From positions 1 to 41,420 of the forward strand of contig JBMYYT010000002.1 in NCBI GenBank assembly GCA_049609665.1: a stretch of 41,420 nt of DNA. The letters are read 5' to 3'. The position numbers and the translations under genes were made by a program. This document shows positions 19,619-39,285 of the stretch, piece after piece. Below the pieces are notes generated by a model. That model was given only the letters and a program-made list of their open reading frames with translations, was not told where the DNA came from and made no database searches. How positions within the stretch are numbered: position 1 is the stretch's first letter; each line of letters begins with the position of its first letter. The stretch is from Flavobacteriales bacterium (GTDB lineage: Bacteria; Bacteroidota; Bacteroidia; Flavobacteriales_D; CAJJDF01).

Positions 19619-19621
19619 AGC

Positions 19622-21415: not shown

Positions 21416-21425
21416 GTTTTATAAT

Positions 21426-23577: not shown

Positions 23578-23585
23578 CAAATATA
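23578..23585 (-). promoter_or_regulatory. Putative sigma-A -7 element of the zwf-pgl-edd-eda operon
   Basis: Minus strand reads TATATTTG (TAnnTTTG); a TTG lies about 22 nt upstream, inside the operator palindrome. Confidence 0.55.
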
Positions 23586-23592
23586 CAAATAG

Positions 23593-23613
23593 TTATTGTA
23601 AAAAATACAATAA
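23593..23613. promoter_or_regulatory. NrtR/AraR-type operator upstream of zwf
   Basis: Palindrome with perfect 7-bp arms, TTATTGT-AAAAAAT-ACAATAA; GT-N7-AC core typical of NrtR-family sites. Confidence 0.8.
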
Positions 23614-23641
23614 GACACAAGAAATCACTGAAATTCGAACT

Positions 23642-24514
23642 CTACCCTAACTGCTTAACAGTTTGGTTGTCAGAATGAAATTCCGTTAACTCTTCAATAG
23701 GACAGCGTGTAATTTTTTTTATGCTCATACCGTATTCACTTGCTACTTCCTTTAGTATTTCATCATAATAAAAGGCTATAGATCCTACGAAGCCTAACTC
23801 ATAACTATTGAAGTTAGGGTAAGGTACGATTCTTACTTCAAAGAAATTCTTAAATCCTTTATAGATTATATCTCTAAGTACCTTATGATGAAGATTTGCA
23901 TGGTAGAAATAAGCAAAGCTTGCTAAGAAAACATTCGGGCTACTTTCTTTATAGGTGGTATTAAGAATTTGATCCTTTGACAATTTAAACTCATTTTCAA
24001 ATGACTTTTTTAACTCGTCATCCATTTTGTCACTTAAGTAGAGTTTTAATAATTCTATTCCCAAATGGGAACCACTTCCTTCGTCTCCAAAAATATATCC
24101 ATGAGAAGCAATATTGGCTTTCTCTTCAGAGTCCTCCCAAACACATGAGTTAGCTCCAGTACCTAAAATACAAGCTATTCCATCGCCATTGCCTAATGTA
24201 GCTCTTGCTGCTGCAATCATGTCATGATTTACATATATTCTTGCTTTTAAAAATTGAGGTTGCAGTCCATTTTTAACGACTGTGGTTCTTTCAGTAGAAG
24301 AACAACCTGCACCATAATAATGTATTTCAGTTACCTTATCCAAATCCAGTTTTGATTTAGAAAAAGATTTAAATATCTCGTTAAAGATAAATTCAGCTGT
24401 TTGAAAATATGGGTTAAATCCTATCGTCTTTATTTTTTCTACAATTTCAGAATTTGAATCAATAATTACCCAATCCGTTTTGGTAGAACCGCTATCTGCT
24501 ATTACTTTATACAT
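23642..24514 (-). CDS. BadF/BadG/BcrA/BcrD (ASKHA) family sugar kinase, N-acetylglucosamine-kinase-like; probable glucokinase in this context
   Basis: ADSGSTKTDW, YYGAGC, ACILGTGANS, GYIFGDEGSG, FVGSIA. Confidence 0.85.
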   Translation of the reverse strand: MYKVIADSGSTKTDWVIIDSNSEIVEKIKTIGFNPYFQTAEFIFNEIFKSFSKSKLDLDKVTEIHYYGAGCSSTERTTVVKNGLQPQFLKARIYVNHDMIAAARATLGNGDGIACILGTGANSCVWEDSEEKANIASHGYIFGDEGSGSHLGIELLKLYLSDKMDDELKKSFENEFKLSKDQILNTTYKESSPNVFLASFAYFYHANLHHKVLRDIIYKGFKNFFEVRIVPYPNFNSYELGFVGSIAFYYDEILKEVASEYGMSIKKITRCPIEELTEFHSDNQTVKQLG

Positions 24515-24516
24515 AG

Positions 24517-25780
24517 TTATATTACTTTAAATGGAATATTACCAGTGGCTACATTCCCATTTCCATCATGAACAAAAAGAAATAATCTATACTCCCCTTT
24601 ACCAGGAGTTTTAAAAGTTACTTTATTTTTGTTCTTATCCGTTTTATTAAAAATTCCTCTTACGGGTTTTGGAGACTTCTCTGCATCTCCACCTGTTTTT
24701 TTATCTGTACTTTCAGGAATAATCATCCATTCATAAATTAAGTTATCCTTGTCTTTATCTTCAATAATAACTGAAGCCTTCATTTCCGAATTCTCCTTGA
24801 TTTTAATATTATCCTTAGATGTCTTCTCGTTTATTCTAAACTTATCAATTGAAGGAGCAAAATTATTTGGATCTTTATTGCTCCAGTTTTTTATCAACAC
24901 ATCCATAACCTGAGTTTCATCTCCAGCCTCTGTAAACAAACCAAACCAAGTAGAGGTGTGTTCTTGCTTTTGTCCCCAAAGAAAAACATAAGAACCAAGA
25001 CAATTAACCGAATCGGAAGTAATTGCCTTGATGCTTTTTTCGTATGTTTCTGCTTTCTCGGTACTATTCTGTTCAATAGATGCTCCCCATTCTGTCTTTT
25101 GTACTTCCCACCAACCATAAGGTCCCCATTCAGCTACTACATAAGGTTTTTTTCCAACCATATACTTTTATAGCTTCAGGTAAATATGAAATATCCCCGT
25201 ATGTATTAACACCTAAAATATCCAGACTTGGCGTATGTTTATTGATTAATTTTACTTCTGCCACATCCAATCCTGCTGTTACAGCCATTGTAGGGTGATT
25301 AGGGTCCTCTTCGTGAATCATTTTGACTAATTCTTCCAAATACTTCCAAACATCGAAGTTGGTGTAATCCAAATCCATTTCATTTCCAACTCCCCAAAGT
25401 AGAATAGCTGGATGATTTTTGTATTTTCTCACCACTCTTCTAAACTCTTCAACTTGAGCCTTGATTGCTCCTTCATTGGAGTAATCAAATCCTTGTCGCT
25501 CCTGCCCCATCCAAATGCCAAATGTCACAGTAATTCCATTTTTATGAGCTTCTTCAAGAATCGCATCTGTTTCTGGACTTATTCCCCAAGTACGTATTGA
25601 ATTTCCGCCATAACTTTTCAACTTTTCAAGCTCCACTGTTCCTCCCGCTCCTTTGATGTAATAGGGCTTACCGTCCTTTAGCAATTGAAATCCATTCTCC
25701 GTAGTCTTTACTTCTACTTTTGAAGCAAAGGCACCTAAGAAAACAAGGTTTAATATAATATATGTAACTATTTTTTTCAT
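24517..25780 (-). pseudogene. Clan GH-A glycoside hydrolase (GH2 TIM-barrel/GH158-like), split by a +1 frameshift at an A7 tract (25147-25153)
   Basis: ORF 25130-25780 has a signal peptide, NSIRTWG and WGVGNEM (acid/base). ORF 24517-25161 has PYVVAEWGP (nucleophile), GSYVFLWG and an Ig-like tail. Deleting one A joins them as ...YGWKKPYVVAEWG... Confidence 0.8.
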
Positions 25781-26580
25781 TTATTCTGGTAAACTTTTAC
25801 GTAATCTACTTCCATAAATTTAGCTGTTCTTAACCCAGCATTATCTACGTTTCCACCTAAATTACCTCCTACTGCAACATTTAACAATAGATGAAATTCA
25901 GCATCAAAAGGCCAAGTAGCACTTACTTGTGAATTGGTTCTTAACACTTGAAAAGACTGAACATCATCCAAAAACCAAGTAATTTTATTTGCGTCCCATT
26001 CAATAGTATATTTATGAAACAAATTATCATACACAATGGGTTCCAAATCCCCTAATTGCCTTCTGTTTCCTAAATTATCAGCAAAATGAATCGTATTGAA
26101 TATTTCACTTGATCTGTTTCCTACAAACTCCATAATGTCGATTTCTCCACTTATTGGCCAGCCTTCACTTGGATTAGTTGGCAACATCCAGAAAGCATGC
26201 CATAGTCCTCCCGAGTTTGACATTCGCATAGAAGCTTCAATTTTTCCATATTTAAAGTCTCCCTTATTCAAAGATCTGATTCTGCCAGAAGTAAAATCCA
26301 AACCTCCAAAACTTTCGGCAATAGCTCCAATTTTTAAGGTACCAGAAGAAACAGATACATTGTTTTCTCTGTAATATTGTTCTTCGTTATTTCCCCATCT
26401 GTACAATCCATAACGAGATCCGTCCCCGATCATATGTTCCCATTTGGAGAGATCTAAACTTGTGCCATTAAAATTATCTTCCCATACCAAGTCATACTTA
26501 GTAACAAGTGGGTCGCTTTGCCTGCAATTATTAAAAAGAATAATTGCAAGTAAAACAGCAAATAATGATTTAATAGCCAT
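25777..26580 (-). CDS. GH16 endo-beta-1,3-glucanase (laminarinase-like) lipoprotein
   Basis: GEIDIME catalytic motif, WGNNEEQYY, FTSGRI, WHAFWML, LLNVAVGG, MEVDYVKVY. Lipoprotein signal ending FNNC from ATG 26580. Confidence 0.92.
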   Translation of the reverse strand: MAIKSLFAVLLAIILFNNCRQSDPLVTKYDLVWEDNFNGTSLDLSKWEHMIGDGSRYGLYRWGNNEEQYYRENNVSVSSGTLKIGAIAESFGGLDFTSGRIRSLNKGDFKYGKIEASMRMSNSGGLWHAFWMLPTNPSEGWPISGEIDIMEFVGNRSSEIFNTIHFADNLGNRRQLGDLEPIVYDNLFHKYTIEWDANKITWFLDDVQSFQVLRTNSQVSATWPFDAEFHLLLNVAVGGNLGGNVDNAGLRTAKFMEVDYVKVYQNK

Positions 26581-26606
26581 TGAAATAACTTTATTGAATA
26601 AGTAAT

Positions 26607-26623
26607 AGCCAACCTTGTTGGCC
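26607..26623 (-). terminator. Short intergenic hairpin (possible weak terminator or mRNA stabiliser)
   Basis: Minus strand GGCCAAC-AAG-GTTGGCT followed by ATTACTTATT. Confidence 0.35.
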
Positions 26624-26646
26624 ATCACTTAAATATAGGTTAAATA

Positions 26647-28983
26647 TTAATTTTTTACAATTCTTGAGGTTGCAACACCTTCTGTTGTCGTTGCTCTCAA
26701 CATATACATTCCAGGAGCTAAATTAGTTGCATCGATTTTAGTAATTCTTACGTTTGGAACTGATGAATACACCAAGTTACCTTTTAAGTCATAAACCTCA
26801 ATCTTAGTGATGTTGTTATCTTCAGATTTAACTGTCCATTGATTATTCGTTGGATTTGGATATACACTTAATTCCTCATTCTTTATCTCCTGTGTCCCAA
26901 CATAAGCTGGTCCCCATCTTACATCATCGAAATAGTAAGTTTTACCAGAACCAGTGTTTCCGAAATCAAAGAATATCGAAGCTTTGTCGTAAACCCATCC
27001 TGCAGCTAATCCTGCACTTAACTGTGCAGTCCCTGCTGCTTCATTTGAGAAATCAAATATTAAGATGTCCCATCCTCCATTTACAGTTGTGGTTGCTTCA
27101 GTTTCACAAGTATGGGTTGCATCGTTGTGATCTTCCACTTTTAGTCGAACTACAGTGTTCGAATCTGGTGACCAAACTCTTACACTCATAATATTATCAG
27201 TTAAAGTGAACGGAAGTAACGCATTAAATCCTAATGATGTACCAATTGTTGTTCCTGCCCAAGTCTGAGCACCAGCAGTTTTATCAACTTTCATCACATG
27301 ATTCGTAGTATCTGTTGGGTCTTTAACCAAAGTAGAAGAATTTCCTCCAAAATCAGTCATTGTGTAATCTACTGCTGTATCTTCAAAAGTTACAGTTAAG
27401 TGAATTTGCAGTTTTGATGGTGGTGGTGGCGGAGGTGATGTTGTGTCTCCTCCGAGCATTAAATTATCGAAATAGAAAGTATCCTGAGCTCCTGCTGTTC
27501 CAAAATCAAAGAACAAAGATGCCTTGTCATAAGTATTTGTCAAATTCAACGCTGGTGTTCCGGTTACTGGATTCTTAAAGTTAAATGTTAAAGTATCCCA
27601 ACCACCAGCAGTTACAGTCATGGCTTCAGTCTCACAACTAATAGCTGAATTTGATGCGTCTTCTACTTTTAATCTAATTGGAGTTCCTGCTGATGCCGAC
27701 CAAACCTTTACGGACATCAATGTATCGTTAACAGTAAATGGAATAGCTGTTGCAAAGCCACTTGGAGTTCCAACAGTCGTTCCTGACCAAGTTTGAGCCC
27801 CAGTTGGTTTTACCACACACATTACTGTATTTGTTGGGTCAGTCGGATCAGTAGCTATACTGTCCGTGTTTCCTCCAAAACTTGTCATCGTATAATCTAC
27901 CGTTGAATCTTCAAAAGTTACGGGCAAATCAATTTGTGAAAGAATTACCGGTATCCCTCCAAAGTAAACATCATCAAAATAAAAAGTATCTTGTGCTCCA
28001 GCTACATTGAAATCAAAGAAAATGGAAGCTTTGTCGTAAGTGTAAGTGAAATTCAAGGCTGCAGTTCCTGTTGCTGGAACTCCAAAATCAAAAGTTAAAG
28101 TATCCCATCCTCCGGTCATTGTGGTCATTGCATCCGTTTCGCAAGTTCGGGTTGCATCAGTTGCATCTTCCACTTTTAATCTAATTGTTTTTCCAGATGC
28201 TGGAGACCATACTCTTACCGTCATCTTTTGATCTGTTGCAGTAAATGGTAAAGCTGTTGCAAATCCTGTTGCAGTTCCAATAGTAGTCCCAGCCCATGTT
28301 TGTGCGCCTGTTGTCTTAATTGCACACATTACCTTGTTTCCTGACATTGTTGGATCTGCTGTCAATGCCGATGCATTTCCTCCAAAGTCTGTCATTGTGT
28401 AATCTACTGTTGTGTCTTCAAAGGTTACTGGCAAATTAATTTGTGATAGTGCTGCTGGTGGAGATACCGGTCCAGAAATTGAGACAGAATCTAATCCAAA
28501 ACCTAAAGTATTTGTATTTCTAAAAGAAATTATAAACTCTAAACTTGTACACCCTACCGGTGCAACAACTGAATCAACATACATCGTAACTGTGCTTCCT
28601 ATAACATCCTGATAAGATGTGTATGAAGTCCAAGAAGCATTTGAAAGATCATAAAGACTAACTCTCAAATCTGTTGTGTCACCTGGTACCGTTGCAGCCC
28701 ACATTTTAATAACATAGGTCGTTCCAGGAACAACAGTTATTGCTTTAGTTGTAAGTCTTTTATGTCCAGAGCCTATATTAATAATGTTAGCAAAGGAAGT
28801 TCCATAATTGGCTCCCATTGTTACTTCACTAACATTTGAGGCAGACACATTGGTTTTGGTGCCAAAAAAATCTGTTGGATTTCCTGAAGCATCCCAAGAT
28901 GATAAGTCACTTTGAAAAACGACCTGCGATATGGAAAAATTAGATAATAAACCTAACGCGATTAGAGTAAATATTCTTTTCAT
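26647..28983 (-). CDS. T9SS-secreted non-catalytic protein: N-terminal jelly-roll-like domain, three tandem CBM-like repeats, CTD
   Basis: Signal peptide; three ~165-170 aa repeats QI.LPVTFED..VDYTMT.FGGN...W.GTT.GT...V.VWS...RLKVED...GGWD.L.F...YDKAS.FFDF...YFD; poly-Pro linker; CTD LSVYPNPT...PGMYML...RIVKN. Confidence 0.8.
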   Translation of the reverse strand: MKRIFTLIALGLLSNFSISQVVFQSDLSSWDASGNPTDFFGTKTNVSASNVSEVTMGANYGTSFANIINIGSGHKRLTTKAITVVPGTTYVIKMWAATVPGDTTDLRVSLYDLSNASWTSYTSYQDVIGSTVTMYVDSVVAPVGCTSLEFIISFRNTNTLGFGLDSVSISGPVSPPAALSQINLPVTFEDTTVDYTMTDFGGNASALTADPTMSGNKVMCAIKTTGAQTWAGTTIGTATGFATALPFTATDQKMTVRVWSPASGKTIRLKVEDATDATRTCETDAMTTMTGGWDTLTFDFGVPATGTAALNFTYTYDKASIFFDFNVAGAQDTFYFDDVYFGGIPVILSQIDLPVTFEDSTVDYTMTSFGGNTDSIATDPTDPTNTVMCVVKPTGAQTWSGTTVGTPSGFATAIPFTVNDTLMSVKVWSASAGTPIRLKVEDASNSAISCETEAMTVTAGGWDTLTFNFKNPVTGTPALNLTNTYDKASLFFDFGTAGAQDTFYFDNLMLGGDTTSPPPPPPSKLQIHLTVTFEDTAVDYTMTDFGGNSSTLVKDPTDTTNHVMKVDKTAGAQTWAGTTIGTSLGFNALLPFTLTDNIMSVRVWSPDSNTVVRLKVEDHNDATHTCETEATTTVNGGWDILIFDFSNEAAGTAQLSAGLAAGWVYDKASIFFDFGNTGSGKTYYFDDVRWGPAYVGTQEIKNEELSVYPNPTNNQWTVKSEDNNITKIEVYDLKGNLVYSSVPNVRITKIDATNLAPGMYMLRATTTEGVATSRIVKN
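26911..28443 (-). repeat. Three intragenic domain repeats (starts 28443, 27936, 27408; periods 507 and 528 bp)
   Basis: Recognisable at protein and DNA level, e.g. recurring + strand TCTTCAAA(A/G)GTTAC and AAAGTATCCCA. Confidence 0.9.
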
Positions 28984-28995
28984 AATTATATTTTA

Positions 28996-30327
28996 TTAGT
29001 TGTTTTTAATTATTCTTTCTGTCGTGAAGTTTCCATTTACATCCAATATTTGGATGAGGTAGGAACCAGACAATAATGACTGAAGATCAACAACTGTTTT
29101 GTTATTATTTATTTCAGTTATATCGATAAGAGTCTTACCTGTTAAATCCATTACTCTAATCTGATCAATTTGAACTTTTGATTCAACTGTAATTTGGTTT
29201 GAAAATGGATTTGGAAAAAGTTTTAAAGTATTGATTGATTTGTTTTCATTAATTCCCACTGAATTATCAAATAAAAATCTAAAATTGTCAAGGAAAATTG
29301 AATCTGGAGTTGCCGTTGAAGAATTTACAAGAAATACAAATTTTTCAAAAGACGTTGATGCTGGCACACCAGATAAATCCATATTAAAAGTACTCCAGCC
29401 TGGAGTTGTAGAAGTTGTGAATAATGAATCTAAAATATCTGTACCGCTCGCATCTTGAAAAACCATTTTAAAATCATATGCTCCAGCTGGACTATATAAA
29501 TCAATGCTAGCAGTGTTGTATTTGGTTGAAACAAATGGGATTTTGATAGTTCCTCCAAAAGCTCCATCATTTGTTGGCGGAATAAATTTGATGAATTTTC
29601 CACATGTTGTTGAAGTGTTTATACCTGAGGTCAGAGGATTTACTTCATTTTGTAAGTGTGTTCCATTAGAAAAATCAAAACTAACATTACGTTGACATTC
29701 ATAATCTTCTCCTATAGCTGTATCAGTAGGAACACTTGCACAAGGATCAATTAGGGTTGGCCCCATTAAATCGTCAAACAAATAAGTGTCGGAATTAAAA
29801 GAATTTGGGTCGAAAAGTAAAACTAATGTTGTAACATTGGTATCAGAAACTGTTGTGTCTGGACTATTGACCAAACTAAAAGTCAAAGTTTCCCATGTGT
29901 TAACCGCAGTTGTCACTGCAGTATATTCACTGTGTCTTCCTGTAGGATAATTAGTAGGACCTGCTGAATTTTTATCTTCTAAAGTTATCTGTAAGGTTTT
30001 ACCAGCTGCTGGGCTGTATACTTTAATCGACATGCTTTTTGTACCTGCCTTAAAATCTGCAACACTTGCAATTTTAAACGTCCCTGTAGGCTCAATTAAT
30101 ATAACGTCATATTGTGAACCTCCATTCCTTGTATATTGAGCACATGTTGAACTTGTATTCACCCCGGTTGTTGAAGGGTTTGAGAATGACTGATTGAATG
30201 TAGTTCCGTTAAAGAAAGGATAGGCCACTTTACCAGGGTTGTCAAAATCATCCCAAGTTGATTGGGAATTTAAAATACATGCACCAAATAGAAAAGTGCC
30301 TAACAATAAAGAACTGAATAATTTCAT
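28996..30327 (-). CDS. T9SS-secreted protein with two divergent CBM-like domains and CTD
   Basis: Signal peptide from ATG 30327 (track start 30381). Domains share the pattern V(Y/W)SP..G...LED...TT...W.T.TF.L...YLFDD with the neighbour's repeats; CTD LKLFPNPF...SGSYLI...RIIKN. Confidence 0.75.
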   Translation of the reverse strand: MKLFSSLLLGTFLFGACILNSQSTWDDFDNPGKVAYPFFNGTTFNQSFSNPSTTGVNTSSTCAQYTRNGGSQYDVILIEPTGTFKIASVADFKAGTKSMSIKVYSPAAGKTLQITLEDKNSAGPTNYPTGRHSEYTAVTTAVNTWETLTFSLVNSPDTTVSDTNVTTLVLLFDPNSFNSDTYLFDDLMGPTLIDPCASVPTDTAIGEDYECQRNVSFDFSNGTHLQNEVNPLTSGINTSTTCGKFIKFIPPTNDGAFGGTIKIPFVSTKYNTASIDLYSPAGAYDFKMVFQDASGTDILDSLFTTSTTPGWSTFNMDLSGVPASTSFEKFVFLVNSSTATPDSIFLDNFRFLFDNSVGINENKSINTLKLFPNPFSNQITVESKVQIDQIRVMDLTGKTLIDITEINNNKTVVDLQSLLSGSYLIQILDVNGNFTTERIIKNN

Positions 30328-30349
30328 TATGAGAAAGTTACATTTATAC

Positions 30350-30392
30350 TTATTGTATTTTTGACTATTACTTATTGTCAAAACAACAATTA
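30350..30392. promoter_or_regulatory. Tandem pair of NrtR/AraR-type operators
   Basis: TTATTGT-ATTTTTG-ACTATTA (30350-30370) and TTATTGT-CAAAACA-ACAATTA (30372-30392), 1-bp spacer. Confidence 0.8.
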
Positions 30393-30432
30393 CTAAAAAC
30401 GAATCTAATGAATTCTTATCGAAAAGTCAAAA

Positions 30433-32697
30433 TTATTTGACTAAAAAATCTCTTTTTATCCCATTAATTTCAAGTTGAAACCCTCCAGTTTCGAGCTCCC
30501 AAGTATTGGATACTCCTACAAAAGCTAATTCTGAAACTGGAATCCTAAATTCAATTTTCTTTGTTGAATTTGCTGAAAGGTTAACTTTTCTGAAGCCTCT
30601 TAATCTTTTAACGCTCGGTGTTATAGAGGCTACTTTGTCACTAATATATACCTGAACAACCTCCTTACCTTCTCTATTAGATGTGTTTTTTATTTCCAAT
30701 GAAACTTTAATTGTATCGGATTTTGAATATTCAAGTTTATCAATATTTACTTCATCATAATTAAAATTTGAATAACTCATACCAAAACCAAATTCCCATT
30801 GTGGATTAAAAGCCTTCTTACCGAAATTGATATCAAAAACTTCAGTGTACTTATGGTCGTATTGGATAAATGAACCCGTAAACCTTGGATAGGTGAAAGG
30901 TATTTTCCCTGATGGATTAGACCCACCAAAAAGAATTTTAGCTAATGCTTCTCCTCCAAAATCTCCTGGCAGGTAACAATGAAGAATCGCATCCGCATTA
31001 GGTACAATCTCATTTATTATCCTTGGTCGGTTAAATGTCAATGTAAAAACTATTGGCTTATTTAATTTACTCAATTCCTTCACTAATCGTTGTTGAGCTT
31101 TTGGCAAAGTTAAATCTTCAATATTTCCTGGAATTTCTGTACATGGAAGTTCTCCCAAGCACACAATTATCACATCAGATTTTTTGGCTTTTTCAATAGT
31201 CTCCTCGAGATTTTTTAAACTATCTAAGCCTGAACCTAAAGAAAACTCTACTTTTCCTTTGGAAATTTGTTTAATAGCCTCATAATAAGTTTTTGCTCCC
31301 TTGGTATTGTAGGTTGGATCAACACCTTGCCAAGTATGAGTCCAAGCACCATTTTGAATGTTTAACGAATTAGCTGCTGGACCGCAAATTAGAATGTTAG
31401 CCTCTTTTTTAAGTGGCAAAACATTATTTTCATTCTTAAGGAGAGTAATTGATTCCAATGCAGTATTCAAAGCAGTTTCTTTGAATTCTTTGGAAGCAAA
31501 CTTCGTGTATCTTGCAAAATCTGGAATTGGATTTTTTAATAGACCCAATTGTTTTTTGACCCAAAGTATCCTTCTGCAAGATTCATCTAATCTACTTTCT
31601 TTGACCTCCCCGCTTTTGACTAAATCGATAAGCGCTTTATTAAAAGAATAATCATTTGGAGTCATACTCATATCAATTCCAGCATTAACCGCAAGCTTCA
31701 CTGCTTCTCGCATATCTTTTGCAACATTATGGTTTTTATACAATTTAATAATGTCTTCCCAATCCGTTACAGCAAGTCCTTTAAACCCTAATTCGTCTCT
31801 CAATAATTTTGTAAGAAGATCAGGATTTGCATGAACAGGAATTCCATTTATCTCTCCAGAATTAATCATTACCGTCAACGCATTTTCCTTAATTGCAGTT
31901 TCAAAAGTTGGTAGATAATATTCTCTAAGTTGTCTTTTTGGAATCCAAACTGGTGTTCTGTCTTTTCCAGACAACGGTGTGCTGTAGCCCAAAAAATGTT
32001 TCATACAAGAAGCTACTTTTTCAGGATTTGAAGGGTCATTACCCTGATACCCAATAATACAAGCCTCTGTCATTTGTTTTGCCAAATAAACATCTTCTCC
32101 ATACGTTTCAAAGAACCTTGACCAAAGCGGCTGACGCCCAATATCCAATACAGGTGAAAAGTTCCAAGGAATTCCTGAAGCTCTACATTCATAGGCTGTT
32201 ATCGAAGCTCCTTCTTTTACTAACTCTAGATTCCATGTTGCAGCCTGTCCTATTTGTTGTGGAAATAATGTTGCATCCACAGTATAATTTACTCCATGAA
32301 TAGCGTCAATCCCGTATATAATTGGAATTTTATTTCCTTCAGTAGTAGCTTTCGTTTGAATTTGAGTGATAATTTCTTGCCAATGTGCTCTGGTATAGGT
32401 GTGACCACCAACATTAAGTATTGATCCCACAAAGTAATGATTAATCGCAGAATCCAGCTTTTTTGAATCTAACTGATGGGGCTTTTCGAGGTTGTAAATT
32501 TCTCCTTTGGAAATAACATCAATATTAATTTGAGTCATCTGCCCAACCTTTTGCTCAATGGTCATTTTTGAAATAATCGCTTCAATTTCTGAATCAACTA
32601 TTTGAGGAATTGAGGTTGAATTTTTTATAGTATTACAAGAAAAAAAGAATAAAAATAATCCCAAGAACAGGGTTAATTGCTTTTTGATTTTCATCAT
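30433..32697 (-). CDS. GH3 beta-glucosidase (BglX-like) lipoprotein
   Basis: GIDAIHG, WSRFFETYGED, MKHF, VTDW nucleophile, NPSGKIP, Fn3 domain GKEVVQVY...LRGF; lipobox FFSC. Confidence 0.94.
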   Translation of the reverse strand: MMKIKKQLTLFLGLFLFFFSCNTIKNSTSIPQIVDSEIEAIISKMTIEQKVGQMTQINIDVISKGEIYNLEKPHQLDSKKLDSAINHYFVGSILNVGGHTYTRAHWQEIITQIQTKATTEGNKIPIIYGIDAIHGVNYTVDATLFPQQIGQAATWNLELVKEGASITAYECRASGIPWNFSPVLDIGRQPLWSRFFETYGEDVYLAKQMTEACIIGYQGNDPSNPEKVASCMKHFLGYSTPLSGKDRTPVWIPKRQLREYYLPTFETAIKENALTVMINSGEINGIPVHANPDLLTKLLRDELGFKGLAVTDWEDIIKLYKNHNVAKDMREAVKLAVNAGIDMSMTPNDYSFNKALIDLVKSGEVKESRLDESCRRILWVKKQLGLLKNPIPDFARYTKFASKEFKETALNTALESITLLKNENNVLPLKKEANILICGPAANSLNIQNGAWTHTWQGVDPTYNTKGAKTYYEAIKQISKGKVEFSLGSGLDSLKNLEETIEKAKKSDVIIVCLGELPCTEIPGNIEDLTLPKAQQRLVKELSKLNKPIVFTLTFNRPRIINEIVPNADAILHCYLPGDFGGEALAKILFGGSNPSGKIPFTYPRFTGSFIQYDHKYTEVFDINFGKKAFNPQWEFGFGMSYSNFNYDEVNIDKLEYSKSDTIKVSLEIKNTSNREGKEVVQVYISDKVASITPSVKRLRGFRKVNLSANSTKKIEFRIPVSELAFVGVSNTWELETGGFQLEINGIKRDFLVK

Positions 32698-33830
32698 TTA
32701 GTGATTTTAATTTCATCAATAAAAACTTCCCCTTTCGAGGTTCCTTCAAAATAAATTTGCTTAATTCTGTCTAAAGCAAATTTCTTATCTCCGAGATTTA
32801 GATTTTTAAGAGGAATAGATATTTTTGACCAGTCATCCGAATTAATTTTTTGAGATTTGTGCGAGAAAATTTCCGTTTTGTGCCCTAAATAGTCTTCAAG
32901 TATTACTTTAAATTGACTTCCTTTTTTGGCCTTCACATTAAACCTAATGGTAGACTCTTCAGAAACTCCTCGTAAATTTACGGCATACCATCCATTCCAA
33001 TTCATTCCCCATTTTGCCCAAGAGCAATCCTTTGCATCGTATTTCCAGTGAATATATTTGTCTCCTTCTCCATTTGCTTTTTCCGATAGTTCTTGACATC
33101 TGTTATTCTCATATCCCCATACATCTTCTTTGAAATTCCCTTCCCGATAAACAATTTGATTGAACTTTCCCTTTGGTCTCATTTTTTCAACCTCAGCTCG
33201 AGATTTAGCATATTCTTCTTTTGAATAACTTACTATTTCAATTTCATCCAAATAAAACGAACCTGCTCCTTCGAGTTGAAATTGCATTTGTTTTATGGAG
33301 TTAATATCTACCTCTTCTTCATCAATAGGGAAATGCCATAAAGGAACAACAATTCTTTTCCAAGTTGTATCTATTTCGAGTCCATATAAATATTTTCCCG
33401 CATCTATAAAATAGTAACTTCCTCCACCTCCAAAGTCTTCTAAATTAGCTACAATTGGAATTGCTTTTGCAGTTTTAGATTGAGTTCTTACATAAAAAGA
33501 CAATGCTTTTTTGAATCTTTCTTGAGATAAATCAACGGGTTGCCAGTTATTGAAACTATTTCCAAATCCAATCCATTCGCAATTTCCTTTGTTCCAAGAA
33601 AGCTTGATACTTGATTTTCCTTTAAAAGCTACTTTATCACTTATCTCAAAATCTCCACAATCAAATAAAGAATTCCACATCGTTCCTACTCCATCCGAAA
33701 ATACGACTTGATCACCCTGAACTGTTGGAGGATGAACTTCATATTTATCATACAAAACCTGTTCTTTGAATTTGACACTTTCGCAAGCAAATAAAGCAAC
33801 TAAAAATGTTATGAAAATTAAATTTTTCAA
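32694..33830 (-). CDS. Lipoprotein with two CBM-like (galactose-binding-like) domains; putative glycan-binding protein
   Basis: TTG start overlapping the upstream TGA; lipobox LFAC; internal duplication (W.G.G..FN.W..V.L ... W..I..PL ... I.Q..F.....G..(Y/F).DEI.I) seen twice. Confidence 0.65.
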   Translation of the reverse strand: MKNLIFITFLVALFACESVKFKEQVLYDKYEVHPPTVQGDQVVFSDGVGTMWNSLFDCGDFEISDKVAFKGKSSIKLSWNKGNCEWIGFGNSFNNWQPVDLSQERFKKALSFYVRTQSKTAKAIPIVANLEDFGGGGSYYFIDAGKYLYGLEIDTTWKRIVVPLWHFPIDEEEVDINSIKQMQFQLEGAGSFYLDEIEIVSYSKEEYAKSRAEVEKMRPKGKFNQIVYREGNFKEDVWGYENNRCQELSEKANGEGDKYIHWKYDAKDCSWAKWGMNWNGWYAVNLRGVSEESTIRFNVKAKKGSQFKVILEDYLGHKTEIFSHKSQKINSDDWSKISIPLKNLNLGDKKFALDRIKQIYFEGTSKGEVFIDEIKITK

Positions 33831-34831
33831 GGAGTGTAAGGAGTATTAGTAGTAAAAATTAAGTGATCTACGAAAGCCTTTGAATTCCCATTTGCCTTGT
33901 TAGCCAAATAAAATACGTTAATAGAAGCAAGCTTAGCAGGTTCAGGCAATCCATTTCCGTTTGTAGAAACTTGATTTCCATCCGCATCAAATTGAATATC
34001 AGAGTATTTGAAACTTACCAAGTTCCAACCCGTATCGGTGTACCAATATTCATAAATAAATCTATCTTCGGTTGCTTCGTCAAAAGTTCCGTCTCCATTT
34101 TCATCTTCATCAAACCAAAATTGGATAAATGCATTTCCTTCACCAATATTCTCAATAGGTTTAAATGCCATATTGAAAAATAAATTTGAAGCACTTGCTG
34201 GTAGTCCGAAATTACTTGAAGCGTTGGGTTGAATCATAACCGAACCAATTGCCCAGTCCCATGGTACATTTCCGTTCCAGCTATAATGACAATTCCCTTT
34301 GGCAGACTCACCGCTTCCACAATCAATTGCTCCTGCAACCGTAGTTTGGTTAAACTTTGACCAGTTCGCTCCTTCTCCATTTTCAAAACTCGTAATTAGG
34401 TAACCATTGTCAACTTTTATCCCAGAAATAGTAACGGTATCATAAAGAACAGGTGTTCCATCTTCATCAGGAAAATTGATTTCAATGTAGGCTTTTTCCA
34501 ATCCAAAACCAGGAAAAGAATTTGCTCCTCCATCCCAAGAAGAATTGTCAATTGAGATAATTCTATCCGTTCCAGAAATAAACCTTTTAGCACCCGTATT
34601 TGCTCCAACTATTGAAATATTCCATTTGGTGTTTTTTGACAATTCACCATTAAAATAAAGTTTATTATCAACTGGAAAATCAACCAGATTTTTATTGATT
34701 TCAACGTCTTTAATAATACTAAAAGGTCCGAATAAATCATTTAAGTCTGGACCATCAAATGTCGTGTCATCTTCTTTTCTACAGGATAGAATAAGTAAGA
34801 TTGAGATTAAAATAAAAACTGTCTTTTTCAT
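33827..34831 (-). CDS. Surface lipoprotein with C-terminal CBM-like domain; putative glycan-binding protein
   Basis: Lipobox ILSC followed by RKEDD (K-D/E-rich, like the Bacteroidota lipoprotein export signal); C-terminal LITSFE...GWNLVSFKY...VDHLIF jelly-roll-like pattern, Trp-rich. Confidence 0.6.
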   Translation of the reverse strand: MKKTVFILISILLILSCRKEDDTTFDGPDLNDLFGPFSIIKDVEINKNLVDFPVDNKLYFNGELSKNTKWNISIVGANTGAKRFISGTDRIISIDNSSWDGGANSFPGFGLEKAYIEINFPDEDGTPVLYDTVTISGIKVDNGYLITSFENGEGANWSKFNQTTVAGAIDCGSGESAKGNCHYSWNGNVPWDWAIGSVMIQPNASSNFGLPASASNLFFNMAFKPIENIGEGNAFIQFWFDEDENGDGTFDEATEDRFIYEYWYTDTGWNLVSFKYSDIQFDADGNQVSTNGNGLPEPAKLASINVFYLANKANGNSKAFVDHLIFTTNTPYTP

Positions 34832-34833
34832 AA

Positions 34834-36546
34834 TTAAAAGAATAAAGAATATAAAAATGTGAACTGAGAAATCCCATAATCCACTGAATTACTTGTTTGG
34901 TGTTTGATACTATTCACCTGATATTGTGCAGATAATATGTTCTTATCAGAGAATCTATACCTCAATCCTACTGCATAAGTATTTTCACTAAAATCATAAG
35001 AAACGATATCAAAATTTTCAATTGAGTTAAAAGCATTCCGTTCATTGATGTAAGCATTTCCATCAACTGCCCATAGCTTTGCTCCCAATAGAAAATCTAA
35101 TTTACGAAGAAATTCAATGGAAAGTCCAGCATCAATTAAAGTGCTATTTAGGTCAACGGTTTCGAACTCTTCCCCTTTTCTTGATGTGTTCTCGTACCTT
35201 ACTCCCAAATCTAATTTGAATTGTTTTTTCCAACCCAAAAAGTCACTAAAGTAGATGTCAGTTCCAGCCTCTACCAATATAAAATTCTTCTTGACATTGG
35301 TTCCCGTACCTCTGGATTGGGTCATGTAAGAGGCATTCAAAAAAGTATTTTTAAACTTAGTGGTATCCGATTTAATCATTTTTAAATAAACTCCTTTCCT
35401 ATTTGGAGTTGCAAGTCCATAAGGATTTATGTTGTCGTATGCTGGATTATAATCCATTAATTCTTCTGAGATTTTAAACGAATTTTCAGTGTTTCCGCTA
35501 ATAACATCTGAGTAACTGATAGGTCTTCCAGTAGCATTATTGGTTATTTGCTGATACAAACCTGGAAATTTACCATAGTTGATTCGTTTCGTTTGAGCAC
35601 CAGGTGATAAAAAATCTGCTCCTACATCCTTATATCCGATTTCAAAACTTAGTCGTTTATCCTTTAATTCTGTAACAAAAGAGACATCGTAAAACCAATC
35701 ATTTATGGATTCAGGAGCTCTTGAATCCTGATAATTGATATACTGAGTGCCTGATGTTCCTGCCTCAGATTTAAGACCAATTTTAAGATTATCGTTTAAT
35801 TCTCTGTTGTAAAAAAGGTTAACTGTGTGCACATTATTTTTGTACTGAATGCTATCTGGAATTGTTTCTTTAAGGTCAAACACATTAACACTATTAAAAG
35901 CCAAAGACAGATTTTCACTTTGGCGAATTGAAATTGTTCCCCCTCCATACAATCTTTCTGGCTCAGCAATTCCATCTGTAGGTCTTTGTCTTGTTATGAA
36001 TCCTTTAAAATCCATTCCTTCGATTACATTGCCGAATTCTAACCCAAAATTCATTTTTGCACCCTGCATTCGCCAGTTGTTGTCATTATAAAACATATCA
36101 TAATGAACAATATCTCTCCTCAAGGCAAATACATCTCCCTCATTTACAATTCCCTCTTCTTGTTGATTAAATAAAGTGTAAGGTGTCATTTTCAAATCAA
36201 TATCACCCACTTCGTAACGCACCAAATCTCCTGCAACACCTTTTACCGTTAATTGTCGAACATCAAATGAAACTCCACCTCCCCAAAATCCACCGAGCTC
36301 ATTTCGGATACGAAACATTCCTAATACCTCGGTGTTCTTGTTGGGAAAAATACTTACTCCTAAATCAAGTAAAGTATGACCATAATTAGCTTTTCTTGTT
36401 GTAATTGAATCCAACGATTCATCGATATTTAGCTCATTTGAGAACATATACGCCCTTGCAGCTCCATTGATTTGAAACTTTTTTTGTTGACCAAAAGCAA
36501 AATTCGTCAACACAACAATAAGTATGAATATAATTTTTTGTTTCAT
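34834..36546 (-). CDS. Uncharacterised outer-membrane beta-barrel-like protein (barrel B)
   Basis: Cleavable signal peptide, alternating amphipathic strands throughout (DLGVRYE, DAGLSIEF, AVGLRYRF), C-terminal FTFLYSLFF; no TonB plug motifs seen. Confidence 0.7.
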   Translation of the reverse strand: MKQKIIFILIVVLTNFAFGQQKKFQINGAARAYMFSNELNIDESLDSITTRKANYGHTLLDLGVSIFPNKNTEVLGMFRIRNELGGFWGGGVSFDVRQLTVKGVAGDLVRYEVGDIDLKMTPYTLFNQQEEGIVNEGDVFALRRDIVHYDMFYNDNNWRMQGAKMNFGLEFGNVIEGMDFKGFITRQRPTDGIAEPERLYGGGTISIRQSENLSLAFNSVNVFDLKETIPDSIQYKNNVHTVNLFYNRELNDNLKIGLKSEAGTSGTQYINYQDSRAPESINDWFYDVSFVTELKDKRLSFEIGYKDVGADFLSPGAQTKRINYGKFPGLYQQITNNATGRPISYSDVISGNTENSFKISEELMDYNPAYDNINPYGLATPNRKGVYLKMIKSDTTKFKNTFLNASYMTQSRGTGTNVKKNFILVEAGTDIYFSDFLGWKKQFKLDLGVRYENTSRKGEEFETVDLNSTLIDAGLSIEFLRKLDFLLGAKLWAVDGNAYINERNAFNSIENFDIVSYDFSENTYAVGLRYRFSDKNILSAQYQVNSIKHQTSNSVDYGISQFTFLYSLFF

Positions 36547-38471
36547 TAGAAAATGATTTTTATTTCAAGTGTGGTTTCATGCCCAGCGTACTTGTCAAGA
36601 GCAAAATTCCTGTCCTCAAATTTGAAGTATCGATGTCTCAAGTATAAAGCTGTGTTCTTAGACATCATATAGTCAAACCCTAATCCAAAGGCAATTCCTT
36701 CTTGATTTCTTGGTCTTTCTGTGAGAATATCAACTTCCGTGTCGTAGTTTGCGATAGCTCTTTCCCAACCTACATACTGGGATAAAACAACTTTTTTGTG
36801 AATTTTGTAATAACTCTCCAATTGGTGAGAATAATAGCGAATATATGCGTCTTCTGTAAACACCGTAATTGGAGAAAACTTGGTTTGAACTGAGTTATAG
36901 GAACCTAAATAAAACACATGCCATGGTTTTCCAAAAAAGTTAAACTTATACTTAACCTGAGCTTCAATGTTATTGAAATACTTATCATTTACAACCTCTC
37001 CCGTTTCCGATAAATCATTCAAATTCAATGTCTCAAAAACATTTCGAAACAATACCGATGTTCTGTCATACGGACCAACATTGGCAGGAAAACTCCACCT
37101 CCAAAACCTTGACATAGTTAATCCATTAATAGCATGTCCATAGGTAATTGAATTGTTTTTGTTTTCAATTTCCTTTGCTATTCCATTTCCTATTGAAATT
37201 ATTGCATCGTCAATTTTAAATTCCGTATTTATATTTAACCCTTGGCGGTTATTTGCCATTTGTCCCATGCCCAGCATGGCACTCCCGTTTTGTTGAAGAA
37301 CACCATTCGCTCCAATGATTGTTTGAGCTCCAGCCGCAGCTGATGTAGCTTCAATTACTGAGGTATTCACGAATTCCACGTTATTGTTCACCACATTTGG
37401 ATTTATTCTGAAATAATGTAATTCAATAGGGATTTTGGTTAATTTTTTATCCAAATTAACCTTTAATGAAACCATTTCGCCTATACCCAAATCTTTATAG
37501 ACATCTTTGTAATGACCTCCCCCTATTTCTCCAGAAATTTTCATTTTATCAAAAACAAAATTAAATTCCGTAGTCAATATTCTATTTTCAATGGGATCCA
37601 ATGCCAACTCATCAGAATAAGTTCTTCTGTTAAAAGAATTAAGACTTACAGAATGTTTCTTGAATACTTTTTTGATACTTCCCGCAACAACATTGTTGGG
37701 TATTGTATTATCATAAAACTTAATAAATGAGTTATTGGTTGAATCACTTGAAACGTTTGCCGGGTCAACAAATGCCGAACCTGCATTTTGAGTTTTTCCG
37801 TATAGCATGTTGAATGACAAACCAAATGGAAGTTCAGTGATATCCAAAATCAACCCTTGAACAGCTTGTTGAGCCCATCTTGTATCTTGAGATATTGCAC
37901 CGTTTTTGTAATAATCCTCGTAACGTTTATTGATATCCTTGAATTGAGGATCCCAAGGGTTTCTGTCAAAAACGCTGTATCTATTATATCCTGCAAACGA
38001 CCGCATTGTAAATGGCGTCATGCTGTGCCAATGTATTCCTCCCGCTTTTACTCCAATGTTAGCAACTTTTGTTTTGAAATTTCCATACAGATTAATCCCC
38101 AATTGTAAATTTCTGTAATAATTGAAATTTCCATCGTTTTGATTCCAAACAACCAAATCCGTTCCAAATGAAGTTCCTGGAGATGGATTTCCTCCCATAT
38201 TTAACGTTAATTCAGGAAGTTGTGAGGCATCTCCAATAAGGAGTGATCTATTACTCAAATAAACAGGCTCATCATTTACAATATCAAATGCAAAAGGGTC
38301 AGTAAACATCCTGTGTTGAGCAAAAAACCTGTAGTTTCCTCCGATATTGAAACCTTTGAGTGGTGCTTTTTTTACTAAAGAGTCTTGAGATATGCCGATT
38401 ACGGAGATTAGTGAAAATAAAATTGTCACTCCGAAATTTAAATTATTTCGTTTGCTTGATTTCTTTTTCAT
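36546..38471 (-). CDS. Uncharacterised outer-membrane beta-barrel-like protein (barrel A)
   Basis: Likely start ATG 38471 (track start 38525); signal peptide; amphipathic strands (GLGFDYMM, ALYLRHRYF); C-terminal TLEIKIIF; TAATG overlap with barrel B. Confidence 0.7.
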   Translation of the reverse strand: MKKKSSKRNNLNFGVTILFSLISVIGISQDSLVKKAPLKGFNIGGNYRFFAQHRMFTDPFAFDIVNDEPVYLSNRSLLIGDASQLPELTLNMGGNPSPGTSFGTDLVVWNQNDGNFNYYRNLQLGINLYGNFKTKVANIGVKAGGIHWHSMTPFTMRSFAGYNRYSVFDRNPWDPQFKDINKRYEDYYKNGAISQDTRWAQQAVQGLILDITELPFGLSFNMLYGKTQNAGSAFVDPANVSSDSTNNSFIKFYDNTIPNNVVAGSIKKVFKKHSVSLNSFNRRTYSDELALDPIENRILTTEFNFVFDKMKISGEIGGGHYKDVYKDLGIGEMVSLKVNLDKKLTKIPIELHYFRINPNVVNNNVEFVNTSVIEATSAAAGAQTIIGANGVLQQNGSAMLGMGQMANNRQGLNINTEFKIDDAIISIGNGIAKEIENKNNSITYGHAINGLTMSRFWRWSFPANVGPYDRTSVLFRNVFETLNLNDLSETGEVVNDKYFNNIEAQVKYKFNFFGKPWHVFYLGSYNSVQTKFSPITVFTEDAYIRYYSHQLESYYKIHKKVVLSQYVGWERAIANYDTEVDILTERPRNQEGIAFGLGFDYMMSKNTALYLRHRYFKFEDRNFALDKYAGHETTLEIKIIF

Positions 38472-38535
38472 TGCTAAAAGCAAGAAAAATAAACAAATAG
38501 TTATTAGGGCAAATGATAAAGTCAAAATCAGCTAA

Positions 38536-38578
38536 TTATTGTTGATATTACAATTAGTTATTGTAAAACTGACACTAA
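38536..38578. promoter_or_regulatory. Tandem pair of NrtR/AraR-type operators
   Basis: TTATTGT-TGATATT-ACAATTA (38536-38556) and TTATTGT-AAAACTG-ACACTAA (38558-38578), 1-bp spacer. Confidence 0.8.
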
Positions 38579-38592
38579 GTTAGCAAAAAAAT

Positions 38593-39285
38593 CTAAACTT
38601 CAAAGTTGAAGCCTCCTTTTTTGAGTATTTCATATCTCTTCTCGTCAAACTCATAAAGCTTCGCAGGACGATGAGAAACGTTTTCTTGAAGATTTCCAGT
38701 CTCTCTTAAAAACTTCATTTGAAGAATTTTTTTTCTAAAATTTCTAATGTCCATTTTTACTCCAAGAATAGCTTCATACAACATTTGCAATTCCGTGAGA
38801 GTAAAATGCGGAGGCAAAAGCTCAAAACCGATTGGCATTGTTCTTACTTTTCTTTTCAGCCTATTTACACAGGATAACAAAATTTTGTCGTGGTCAAAAG
38901 CTAAATCTTTTACATTGTTCACCTTAAACCATTTAGCTTTTGAAGCGAAAGAAGAAGGACTTAATTCATAATCATCTATTTTAACTAAAGTAAAATATCC
39001 TGTTGTAAGCACTCGTCCTAAAGGGTGTCTTTGAATTTCTCCAAAAGTTTCTACTTGCTCAAAATAAAGATTACTCAACCCTGTAAGATCTTTAAGAATT
39101 CTGTTGACAGAAGCATTTAAGTCTTCATCAGGGCTCATTAAATCTCCTGGCAAAGCCCAAAAATCCTTAAATGGAATTTCTCCTCTTTCAATTAAAAGAA
39201 CCTTCAAATCAACACCATCGAATCCAAAAACCACACAATCAATGGAAACTGCAAGAGTAAAATATTTTTTTAAACTATCCTTCAA
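38593..39285 (-). CDS. NrtR/AraR-family transcriptional regulator (Nudix domain plus winged helix)
   Basis: SIDCVVFGFD, WALPG, EQVETFG..RHP.GRV, LAFDH, FTLTELQ.LYEAILG, DIRNFRKK, HRPAKLY; TTG start. Confidence 0.93.
   Translation of the reverse strand: MKDSLKKYFTLAVSIDCVVFGFDGVDLKVLLIERGEIPFKDFWALPGDLMSPDEDLNASVNRILKDLTGLSNLYFEQVETFGEIQRHPLGRVLTTGYFTLVKIDDYELSPSSFASKAKWFKVNNVKDLAFDHDKILLSCVNRLKRKVRTMPIGFELLPPHFTLTELQMLYEAILGVKMDIRNFRKKILQMKFLRETGNLQENVSHRPAKLYEFDEKRYEILKKGGFNFEV

Follow-up and report, generated by a model that had tools for sequence, protein, structure and literature searches.

A predicted NrtR/AraR-family regulon joining beta-glucan use to the Entner-Doudoroff pathway in a Flavobacteriales bacterium

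Genes and predicted operators of the locus

The window analyzed here is a 41,420-nt stretch of contig JBMYYT010000002.1 (contig C2) from a Flavobacteriales genome (G000), a bin of 2.61 Mb in 410 contigs with 33% G+C that is 88.65% complete and 1.86% contaminated. It holds a row of genes between 19052 and 39285, all on the minus strand, with an NrtR/AraR-family regulator at 38593-39285 and five 21-bp palindromes that, judged by sequence comparison, are very probably the operators of that protein. This reading rests on the sites themselves and on four further observations: they are in excess of chance, they are conserved, they occur together with the regulator, and their motif covaries with the recognition helix. 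Gene products were assigned by Pfam and NCBIfam profile searches, and start codons were read from the sequence. The features of the row, in the direction of transcription, are as follows (T9SS, type IX secretion system).

38593..39285, minus strand, NrtR/AraR-family regulator, 230 aa, with a degenerate Nudix domain and a winged helix; the presumed operator binder
38558..38578, operator, the more distal of the two sites ahead of the barrel operon; minus strand TTAGTGT-N7-ACAATAA, 14 bp past the regulator stop codon
38536..38556, operator, proximal site of the barrel-operon pair; 21.3 bits, 22 bp from the distal site
30433..38471, minus strand, operon 1: two barrel proteins, 334-aa unknown, CBM30-like protein, GH3
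36546-38471 and 34834-36546, minus strand, two predicted outer-membrane barrel proteins with weak OMP_b-brl matches
33827-34831, minus strand, unknown protein of 334 aa
32694-33830, minus strand, CBM30-like protein
30433-32697, minus strand, GH3, beta-glucosidase-type enzyme
30372..30392, operator, first of the two tandem sites separating GH3 from the T9SS-tail gene; found by pattern and matrix score
30350..30370, operator, second of the GH3/T9SS-tail tandem; 22 nt from the ATG at 30327
23642..30327, minus strand, operon 2: T9SS-tail proteins, GH16, split GH2-TIM-like hydrolase, kinase
28996-30327 and 26647-28983, minus strand, two T9SS-tail proteins, one with CBM_4_9
25777-26628, minus strand, GH16
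24517-25780, minus strand, GH2-TIM-like hydrolase in two overlapping frames (frameshift)
23642-24514, minus strand, BadF/NagK-type sugar kinase
23593..23613, operator before zwf; TTATTGT-N7-ACAATAA, a perfect palindrome followed after 7 nt by a consensus -7 box
23578..23585, minus strand, predicted sigma-A -7 box TATATTTG of the zwf promoter; exact consensus
19052..23566, minus strand, operon 3: zwf, pgl, edd, eda (Entner-Doudoroff pathway)

The pattern TTATTGT-N7-AC(A/T)(A/C)T(A/T)A was scanned over the whole window and matched at 23593, 30350, 30372, 38536, and 38558, giving six matches for five places since the perfect palindrome at 23593 is counted on both strands. One hundred dinucleotide-preserving shuffles of the window gave a mean of 0.01 matches, a flattering figure given that the pattern was written from the very sites counted. 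The TTATTGT half is identical in all five sites; read on the gene strand, this invariant half (ACAATAA) is the gene-proximal half of each site. Both pairs are spaced 22 bp from start to start. The longest intergenic gaps of the row, of 121, 105, and 75 bp, precede the first barrel gene, the first T9SS-tail gene, and zwf, respectively, and each carries one or two sites, while every other gap is at most 18 bp. An earlier note on this DNA had reported five 21-bp sites at these positions, in the three longest gaps of the locus and upstream of zwf, the T9SS/GH16 unit, and the barrel unit, with an invariant TTATTGT half; the scan returned exactly these sites, and the gap lengths and gene coordinates agree with that description.

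The gene content of the row corresponds to the requirements of a predicted route from beta-1,3/1,4-glucan to pyruvate. No SusC/SusD homologue was found in the locus with the Pfam and NCBIfam profiles, and neither araA/araB/araD-type genes nor a second regulator gene were present between 19052 and 39285. Terminator-like sites numbered 12 against 10.7 expected, with none inside the three operator gaps. A sigma-70 scan gave 63 promoter-like sites against 75.8 expected, its consensus not being of the host's type (Bacteroidetes -33/-7). The GH2-TIM-like hydrolase is split in this window and is a single open reading frame (ORF) of about 426-433 aa in the relatives G005, G003, G012, and G027. The frame switches at about 25100-25150, beside a run of seven A, and reflects either an assembly error or a genuine frameshift.

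Occurrence across the genome

The exact pattern occurred at 8 distinct places in the genome, compared with 2 for the pattern read backwards. A symmetrized matrix was trained on the five window sites, and at a usable cutoff of at least 18 bits, it found 10 places, 5 of them beyond the training set. The same cutoff yielded 1, 0, 0, 0, and 0 places in five third-order Markov genomes and none with the reversed matrix. Once the cutoff was lowered to 14 bits, signal and noise merged, with 28 matches in the real genome, 9-20 in the simulated genomes, and 19 with the reversed matrix. The concern raised in the earlier note, that the motif might be frequent by chance in an AT-rich genome, does not apply at 18 bits or more, and the scan of genome and orthologous loci that it had suggested found 10 places against 0-1 simulated, with sites recurring in relatives.

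Among the nontraining places, the site at C99:7124 (22.1 bits) lies 110 nt before gap, the glyceraldehyde-3-phosphate dehydrogenase (GAPDH) gene, and that at C26:11744 lies 50-30 nt before a gene for a 554-aa GluP/FucP-type MFS transporter, whose best NCBIfam matches are gluP (178 bits; cutoff, 202.55) and fucP. The operator-bearing MFS gene sits inside a GH92/GH20/glycosylasparaginase cluster. A third site, C317:1214, forms a 22-bp tandem with a 15.4-bit partner at C317:1236; the 2.4-kb contig C317 (1-2427) is a 70%-identical second copy of the GH3/tandem operator/T9SS junction and is either a paralogue of the locus or DNA of another, related population within the bin. The predicted regulon in this genome thus also takes in gap (C99) and the GluP-like MFS transporter (C26), so the three-operon regulon of the earlier note stands as far as the three units carrying sites are concerned and falls short in its extent.

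Conservation in related genomes

Relatives were labelled G001-G012 (the 12 other genomes of the genus), G013 (a sister genus), and G027 (another family). Regulator orthologues of 65-84% identity were found in 8 of the 12 other genus genomes and in G027; G002 has two copies, 84% and 81% identical to the query. Orthologous loci were compared in full for G005, G003, G012, G027, and G001 and as short loci for G002, G007, G008, and G009. The gene order of operon 1 is syntenic in the five full loci. A site just past the regulator stop codon was present in 10 of 10 orthologous loci, and also in locus L102, always with one imperfect TTAGTGT or TTAGCGT half; at the proximal position of the barrel pair, the alignment shows only a degenerate copy in the relatives. 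At the GH3/T9SS junction, at least one site was found in all seven aligned sequences (G000, C317, G005, G003, G012, G027, and G001), and the 22-bp tandem in five (G000, C317, G005, G003, and G027; the second C317 site is counted from the matrix scan). Four of five loci (G000, G005, G003, and G027) have a site before zwf; G012 has a 41-bp gap and no site there, and the G001 contig stops short of zwf. The separation within tandems was 1 bp in all six seen (two in G000 and one each in C317, G005, G003, and G027).

Across alignments of the three gaps from the same seven sequences, the half-sites are conserved while the N7 spacers and flanks have diverged, which is the signature of a protein-binding palindrome. 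A REP-like (repetitive extragenic palindromic) or purely structural repeat was ruled out on the fixed half-sites, the freely varying spacers, and the restriction of copies to places before genes. A one-mismatch pattern scan of five relatives was noisy genome-wide, with 14-32 matches per strand where the backward control had 9-20, and served only to find clusters for scoring with the matrix.

The operator-bearing transporter differs among the genomes. In G003 (L046:17618-19261), a gene for a 547-aa SSF Na+/solute symporter, identified from its ORF and Pfam match, lies between the operator and the first barrel, and a matching space of 1.6-1.7 kb precedes the barrels in G005, G012, G027, and G001. 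This position lacks the SSF symporter in G000 (window 38472-38592) and L102, and no close homologue was found in the G000 genome (best, 24% identity). The operator-bearing MFS gene of G000 had no counterpart in the 12 other genus genomes at E 1e-60; in G022, a 46%-identical MFS adjoins a 47%-identical regulator with TTATTGT sites. The operator thus appears to follow function, standing before an SSF symporter in relatives and before an MFS sugar symporter in G000. The predicted regulon of relatives extends to the Na+/solute symporter, to a second paralogue of gap, to additional T9SS proteins, and, in some of them, to the gluconeogenic gene pckA. Strong sites in G003:C34 (L051) and G001:C10 (L052) precede extra T9SS-tail proteins (legume-lectin-like with a CHU_C tail, and CBM_4_9 proteins) and a T9SS-tailed GH16. 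Because these sites precede additional T9SS-tail proteins and GH16, the secreted arm of the predicted regulon differs among species.

Sites before gap follow the regulator. The gene gap1 is present in every genus member, and a 45-48% identical paralogue, gap2, in six regulator-bearing genomes. The site stands before gap2 and not gap1 in G001, G002, G003, G007, and G009 (16.2-19.8 bits) and before gap1 in G000 (110 nt, 22.1 bits) and G012 (104 nt, 22.8 bits), where no gap2 was found. In the regulator-less G004, G006, and G010, the best score before gap1 was at most 8.8 bits; G011 is without upstream DNA. In G005, neither gap gene has its own site, and gap2 follows a 33%-identical NrtR-like paralogue with a one-mismatch site upstream. 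Each regulator-bearing genome therefore has exactly one site-bearing GAPDH gene, G005 excepted and G008 being outside the scan. Neither GH3 nor edd had a match at E 1e-50 in the regulator-less G004, G006, G010, and G011 or in G013 (single-protein queries; genomes 81-100% complete).

Recognition helix and motif

The recognition helix and nearby palindromes were read for 30 homologues. Residues are given at the two positions equivalent to 179-180 of BtAraR, the arabinose regulator of Bacteroides thetaiotaomicron, followed by the half-site.

Orthologues (10): I, T, or P, then R; TTATTGT
Homologues of 47-54% identity (7): K-A, K-G, or P-S; TTATTGT in G033, G022, and G036, TTATAGT in G044, TTAAGGT in G051
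Homologues of 41-51% identity (9): K-R; AGTGT-N7-ACACT type in 9 of 9
Canonical-type paralogues (4): R-R; GCGT or GTGT in 4 of 4

No palindrome was seen near the 47-54% homologues of G023 and G017. Near every one of the 13 [K/R]-R homologues lie half-sites of GTGT or GCGT form, and the three K-A homologues with a site seen (G033, G022, and G036) have TTATTGT. Five of the seven 47-54% homologues adjoin homologues of the window MFS, GH3, T9SS, or split-hydrolase genes, and seven of the nine 41-51% homologues have a kinase or gap homologue beside them. The crystal structure of BtAraR on DNA shows the G of GTGT bonded by Lys179, with Arg180 intercalated next to that G (PMC4666351); in the homologues read here, the half-site G occurs exactly where both residues do.

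These data bear on whether the palindromes could be bound by another factor encoded elsewhere, for example, of Crp, GntR, or LacI type, with the NrtR-like gene as a passenger. A Crp-family gene does adjoin one weak match (C17), and AT-rich palindromes are easily over-read at 33% G+C. Such a factor is nonetheless highly improbable: no second regulator gene lies in 19052-39285, the site geometry is the NrtR family's own, a site directly follows the regulator stop codon in 10 of 10 loci, the motif shifts with the regulator's recognition helix, and no gap site occurs in genomes where the regulator was not found. The second NrtR-family protein of this genome, encoded at C20:4878-5567 and 43% identical to the regulator, was also rejected as the binder; it has its own GCGT-type palindromes, and G004, where only that paralogue type was found, yielded neither a match to GH3 or edd nor a site ahead of gap.

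Identity and pocket of the regulator

The regulator comprises PF00293 (residues 12-136) and PF21906 (NrtR_WHD; 153-213, E 6.6e-28), with a match to PF19368 (AraR_C). It aligned over residues 9-219 with the BtAraR structure 5BS6 (E 8e-48) and also matched Shewanella oneidensis NrtR, 3GZ5 (E 1.7e-24). These matches bear out the assignment of the adjacent gene to the NrtR family in the earlier note. That family is reported to bind 21-bp palindromes with a GT-N7-AC core in most of its groups, according to the portion of PMC2330246 available, in agreement with what that note had taken as established; a palindrome of this kind lies near the regulator gene here. The Nudix signature, quoted in PMC4666351 as GX5EX7REUXEEXGU, corresponds to residues 47-70, where alignment with 5BS6 shows Asp for the first Glu and N-R-I-L-K-D in place of REUxEE; the catalytic glutamates are lost, and the signature is therefore impaired, as expected of the family.

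The pocket combines retained and altered positions. In BtAraR, Arg34, Arg86, and His131 bond all four L-arabinose hydroxyls, and Phe36, Gly48, and Phe49 line C4/C5 of the sugar (PMC4666351). The hydroxyl-binding triad is retained in the regulator, as are Gly47, Val92, and Phe129, and the lining residues are changed (Phe36 to Glu, Gly48 to Asp, Phe49 to Leu); all 10 orthologues have Glu/Asp, Asp/Asn, and Leu at these positions. The arabinose pocket that defines AraR is thus not preserved. Of the DNA contacts, reported to be absolutely conserved in AraR orthologues (PMC4666351), Arg180, Asn181, Lys184, and Arg205 are kept, and Lys179 and Lys204 are replaced by Ile and His. Nor does the regulator cluster with araA/araB/araD-type genes that it could control. 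The acidic residues of the pocket would make bonds to an additional hydroxymethyl group and disfavor phosphate or carboxylate. A neutral sugar is favored, and we infer a neutral hexose or short gluco-oligosaccharide as the effector, with glucose as the first candidate.

An alternative is a classical NrtR that responds to ADP-ribose and links sugar catabolism with NAD status. Such a protein would belong to the same family, and the best NCBIfam match of the regulator is indeed the ADP-ribose-responsive repressor model NF050029. The score was 159 bits against a cutoff of 400, and the position of the ADP-ribose-binding Arg98 of S. oneidensis NrtR (position 89 here) is Leu in the regulator and Leu, Met, or Gln in its orthologues, whereas Arg is kept in the four proteins of the paralogue group. 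A separate NrtR, the C20 protein, retains this Arg and heads its own operon, of prs-Macro-KptA-Macro-NADAR type, with its own TTAGCGT-N7-ACGCTAA operators. On these grounds, an ADP-ribose-sensing regulator is extremely improbable, and the protein of the window is best described from its sequence as an AraR-like member of the NrtR family that is neither an AraR orthologue nor an ADP-ribose-sensing NrtR.

In full, the operon at C20:168-5567 (L098), led by the canonical-type NrtR, comprises prs-like, Macro, KptA/Tpt1, 2OG-oxygenase, Macro, metallophosphoesterase, and NADAR genes and looks like a set for ADP-ribose/NAD turnover. Its palindromes, TTAGCGT-N7-ACGCTAA (C20:4866) and TTTGCGT-N7-ACACAAA (C20:4814), lie just past the NrtR stop codon. 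The cell is thus predicted to have two NrtR-family systems with distinct operators, the one in the window being of the sugar type.

Promoter geometry and proposed mechanism

The flavobacterial sigma-A -7 box is given as TAnnTTTG at -12 to -5, with a median 5' untranslated region of 24 nt, in the part of PMC9723704 available, and boxes of this form were found by a scripted search. Only the zwf box is a clean consensus match among the three operator-adjoining boxes; TATATTTG lies 7 nt past the operator and is identical in G005 and G003. Near-consensus boxes are TATATTTA, 4 nt past the MFS operator, and TATAAATG, 1 nt past the second T9SS operator. From the zwf box, the zwf operator would lie at about -40 to -20, and given that placement its proposed overlap with the -33 element is a reasonable prediction.

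In the following scheme, DNA binding and its cooperativity, the direction of regulation, the effector, and where the promoters lie are predicted. A regulator dimer would bind each 21-bp site through its winged helix, and in the 22-bp tandems, about two helical turns, two dimers would sit on the same DNA face, probably cooperatively. An interval of 1-7 nt separates the operator from the -7-like box that follows it at zwf, the MFS gene, and the T9SS-tail gene; the operator would therefore cover about -40 to -15, and its occupation would block RNA polymerase. The pair past the regulator gene may also halt transcription running on from the promoter of the regulator. The degenerate Nudix pocket would be filled by a sugar that the pathway produces, and the repressor would then leave the DNA; free glucose is the likeliest such sugar, followed by a short beta-1,3-gluco-oligosaccharide. 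Release would jointly induce the surface and secreted proteins (glucan-binding and GH16), both barrels, and the periplasmic GH3, together with the sugar symporter of the inner membrane (of MFS type here and SSF type in relatives), the sugar kinase, zwf-pgl-edd-eda, and GAPDH. The chances that the protein is such a plain glucose-released repressor are, on these sequence grounds, about even.

Several observations weigh against this scheme or against parts of the evidence for it. The operator of gap1 lies at about -79 to -59 from the sole exact -7 box, and a site lies 121-151 nt before pckA in five of nine regulator-bearing genomes (G005, G002, G007, G001, and G003); these positions suit simple occlusion poorly and may leave room for activation or dual control. 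Matches below about 16 bits were indistinguishable from noise, and the matrix was trained on the same sites that it should explain. The match at C91:8801 is inside an ORF and has a single good half, and that at C17:12638, before a VWA/DUF1573 gene, has a broken AC core; both are probable noise. The contigs C26, C99, and C317 are not provably from the same cell as the window. The joint presence and absence of regulator and locus could stem from physical linkage alone. Finally, the covariation of helix and motif is not one-to-one, K-A proteins also pairing with TTATTGT, and the regulator-adjacent site retains a GTGT half.

The placement of the gap and pckA sites bears most on a reading in which the same regulator and sites serve a dual or activating, HexR-like control of central carbon metabolism, sensing KDPG (2-keto-3-deoxy-6-phosphogluconate), 6-phosphogluconate, or glucose-6-phosphate. 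It would account for gap being reached in every regulator-bearing genome examined (in G005 via the paralogous regulator gene upstream), for pckA being reached in 5 of 9, for sites upstream of the core promoter at both genes, and for the kinase or gap gene adjoining sister regulator clades in 7 of 9 loci. It is unlikely, given that the pocket retains the neutral-sugar triad and gains acidic Glu36 and Asp48, which would repel phosphate or carboxylate, that the zwf, MFS, and T9SS operators are at repressor-type positions, and that G000 is without a site before pckA. The other four regulator-bearing genomes, G000 among them, had no pckA site, and neither did G006, G010, and G011, which lack the regulator; in G004, the sequence ahead of pckA is too short for a call.

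A direct repeat, GTGGAAAAC-N9-12-GTG(G/A)AAAAAC, lies about 65-100 nt before pckA (L084-L095; G000 C33 just beyond 1521) in all 12 genus genomes with enough upstream sequence, regardless of the NrtR-like regulator. It probably belongs to another transcription factor.

The earlier proposal that the NrtR-family protein co-represses uptake, hydrolysis, and Entner-Doudoroff genes is supported as regards co-regulation, which fits site conservation, co-occurrence with the regulator, and helix covariation; repression is the part that is inferred. Its further claim, that the barrels belong with sugar catabolism, has good contextual evidence in the shared operators and conserved synteny.

Comparison with known systems

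BtAraR (BT0354; PDB 5BS6, 5DD4, 5DDG, and 5DEQ) is a repressor whose binding is abolished by L-arabinose, and its operators are 21-bp semipalindromes, in tandem at araM with a separation of 3 bp or 42 nt (PMC4666351). The two proteins are alike in full-length sequence, in the degenerate Nudix domain and winged helix, in 21-bp semipalindromic operators that occur singly and in tandem, in the triad Arg34/Arg86/His131, and in a regulator gene within the sugar locus that it controls (PMC4666351; control is predicted here). They differ in that the regulon here has no ara genes and consists of beta-glucan, glucose, Entner-Doudoroff, and gap functions; in the half-site, TTATTGT here and GTGT type in BtAraR; in the tandems, 1 bp apart here (22-bp period) and 3 bp or 42 nt apart there; and in the residues Lys179 (Ile), Lys204 (His), Phe36 (Glu), Gly48 (Asp), and Phe49 (Leu).

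Canonical NrtR (S. oneidensis, 3GZ5) shares the domain pair and the 21-bp GT-N7-AC palindrome, as far as the available part of PMC2330246 describes it. The regulator here differs in falling below the equivalog cutoff, in the missing ADP-ribose-binding Arg, and in a regulon with no NAD genes. Bacteroidetes NrtR-like regulators have been tied to arabinose and xylose loci in the portions available of PMC2330246 and PMC3878776. XylR (BT0791) and the predicted NrtR-like pentose regulators are thus likewise cases, in the same phylum, of the family recruited to sugar loci; they were compared by description, and their targets are xylose genes in the case of XylR and glucan/glucose genes here.

In Pseudomonas and Shewanella, HexR, a repressor of the RpiR family with KDPG as its effector, alone ties together zwf-pgl-edd-eda, the glucose kinase step, and gap. 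It is a functional analogue with an unrelated fold and operator, a neutral sugar being favored as the effector here.

The literature search, with RegPrecise and subscription journals outside its scope, found no NrtR-type member tied to glucan, glucose, or Entner-Doudoroff genes. In the literature searched, NrtR with laminarin was found only in PMC7641319 (2020), which cites AraR only, and a Nudix regulator with laminarin and polysaccharide utilization locus (PUL) was found in none. The introduction of that 2020 paper, the part available, describes PUL regulatory pathways in marine Bacteroidetes as unknown (PMC7641319). The sites described here give a clean, testable predicted regulon for the use of beta-glucan of laminarin type in an uncultured marine Flavobacteriales lineage, and the regulator is soundly viewed, from sequence, as a new specificity group of a known family with a predicted regulon. 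The sugar range of NrtR/AraR would extend from pentoses to a hexose pathway and central metabolism, and a residue-to-base rule is suggested, relating the residue at the BtAraR Lys179 position to G or T in the half-site.

Because of the shared operators and conserved synteny, the two unannotated barrels, the 334-aa unknown, and the T9SS-tail proteins are placed in one predicted pathway with GH16, GH3, the symporter, the kinase, and the Entner-Doudoroff enzymes, and they are candidates for glucan import without SusC/SusD. A broader possibility, put forward tentatively and on the doubtful side, is that the NrtR scaffold was recruited in Flavobacteriales as a glucose-sensing, HexR/CggR-like master switch of central sugar catabolism. 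The TTATTGT clade would then drive SusC/SusD-less beta-glucan uptake built on the two barrels, the GTGT sister clades sit beside glucokinase-like and gap genes in many genera of the order, and the regulator would reach the gluconeogenic pckA in some species. Replacement of Lys179 by Ile, Thr, or Pro, or of Arg180 by Ala or Gly, would separate these operators from those of the co-resident ADP-ribose NrtR.

Regulator homologues of 41-50% identity also occur beyond Flavobacteriales, in L103 and L104 (Verrucomicrobiales metagenome-assembled genomes), L115 (Lewinella), and L107 (Spirosoma). None of the window sugar genes was found within 6 kb of these homologues, and GTGT-type palindromes lie nearby in L103 and L107. 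In the ESM Atlas, the two barrel proteins are assigned to unnamed Bacteroidota clusters, one of which has 2198 members; the barrel clusters have DUF6029 clusters as feature neighbors at 0.97, which is a lead only. The ESM Atlas model of the 641-aa barrel has a predicted template modelling score (pTM) of 0.77, and an AlphaFold model built from a 6-sequence alignment is poor, with a mean pLDDT of 36.9.

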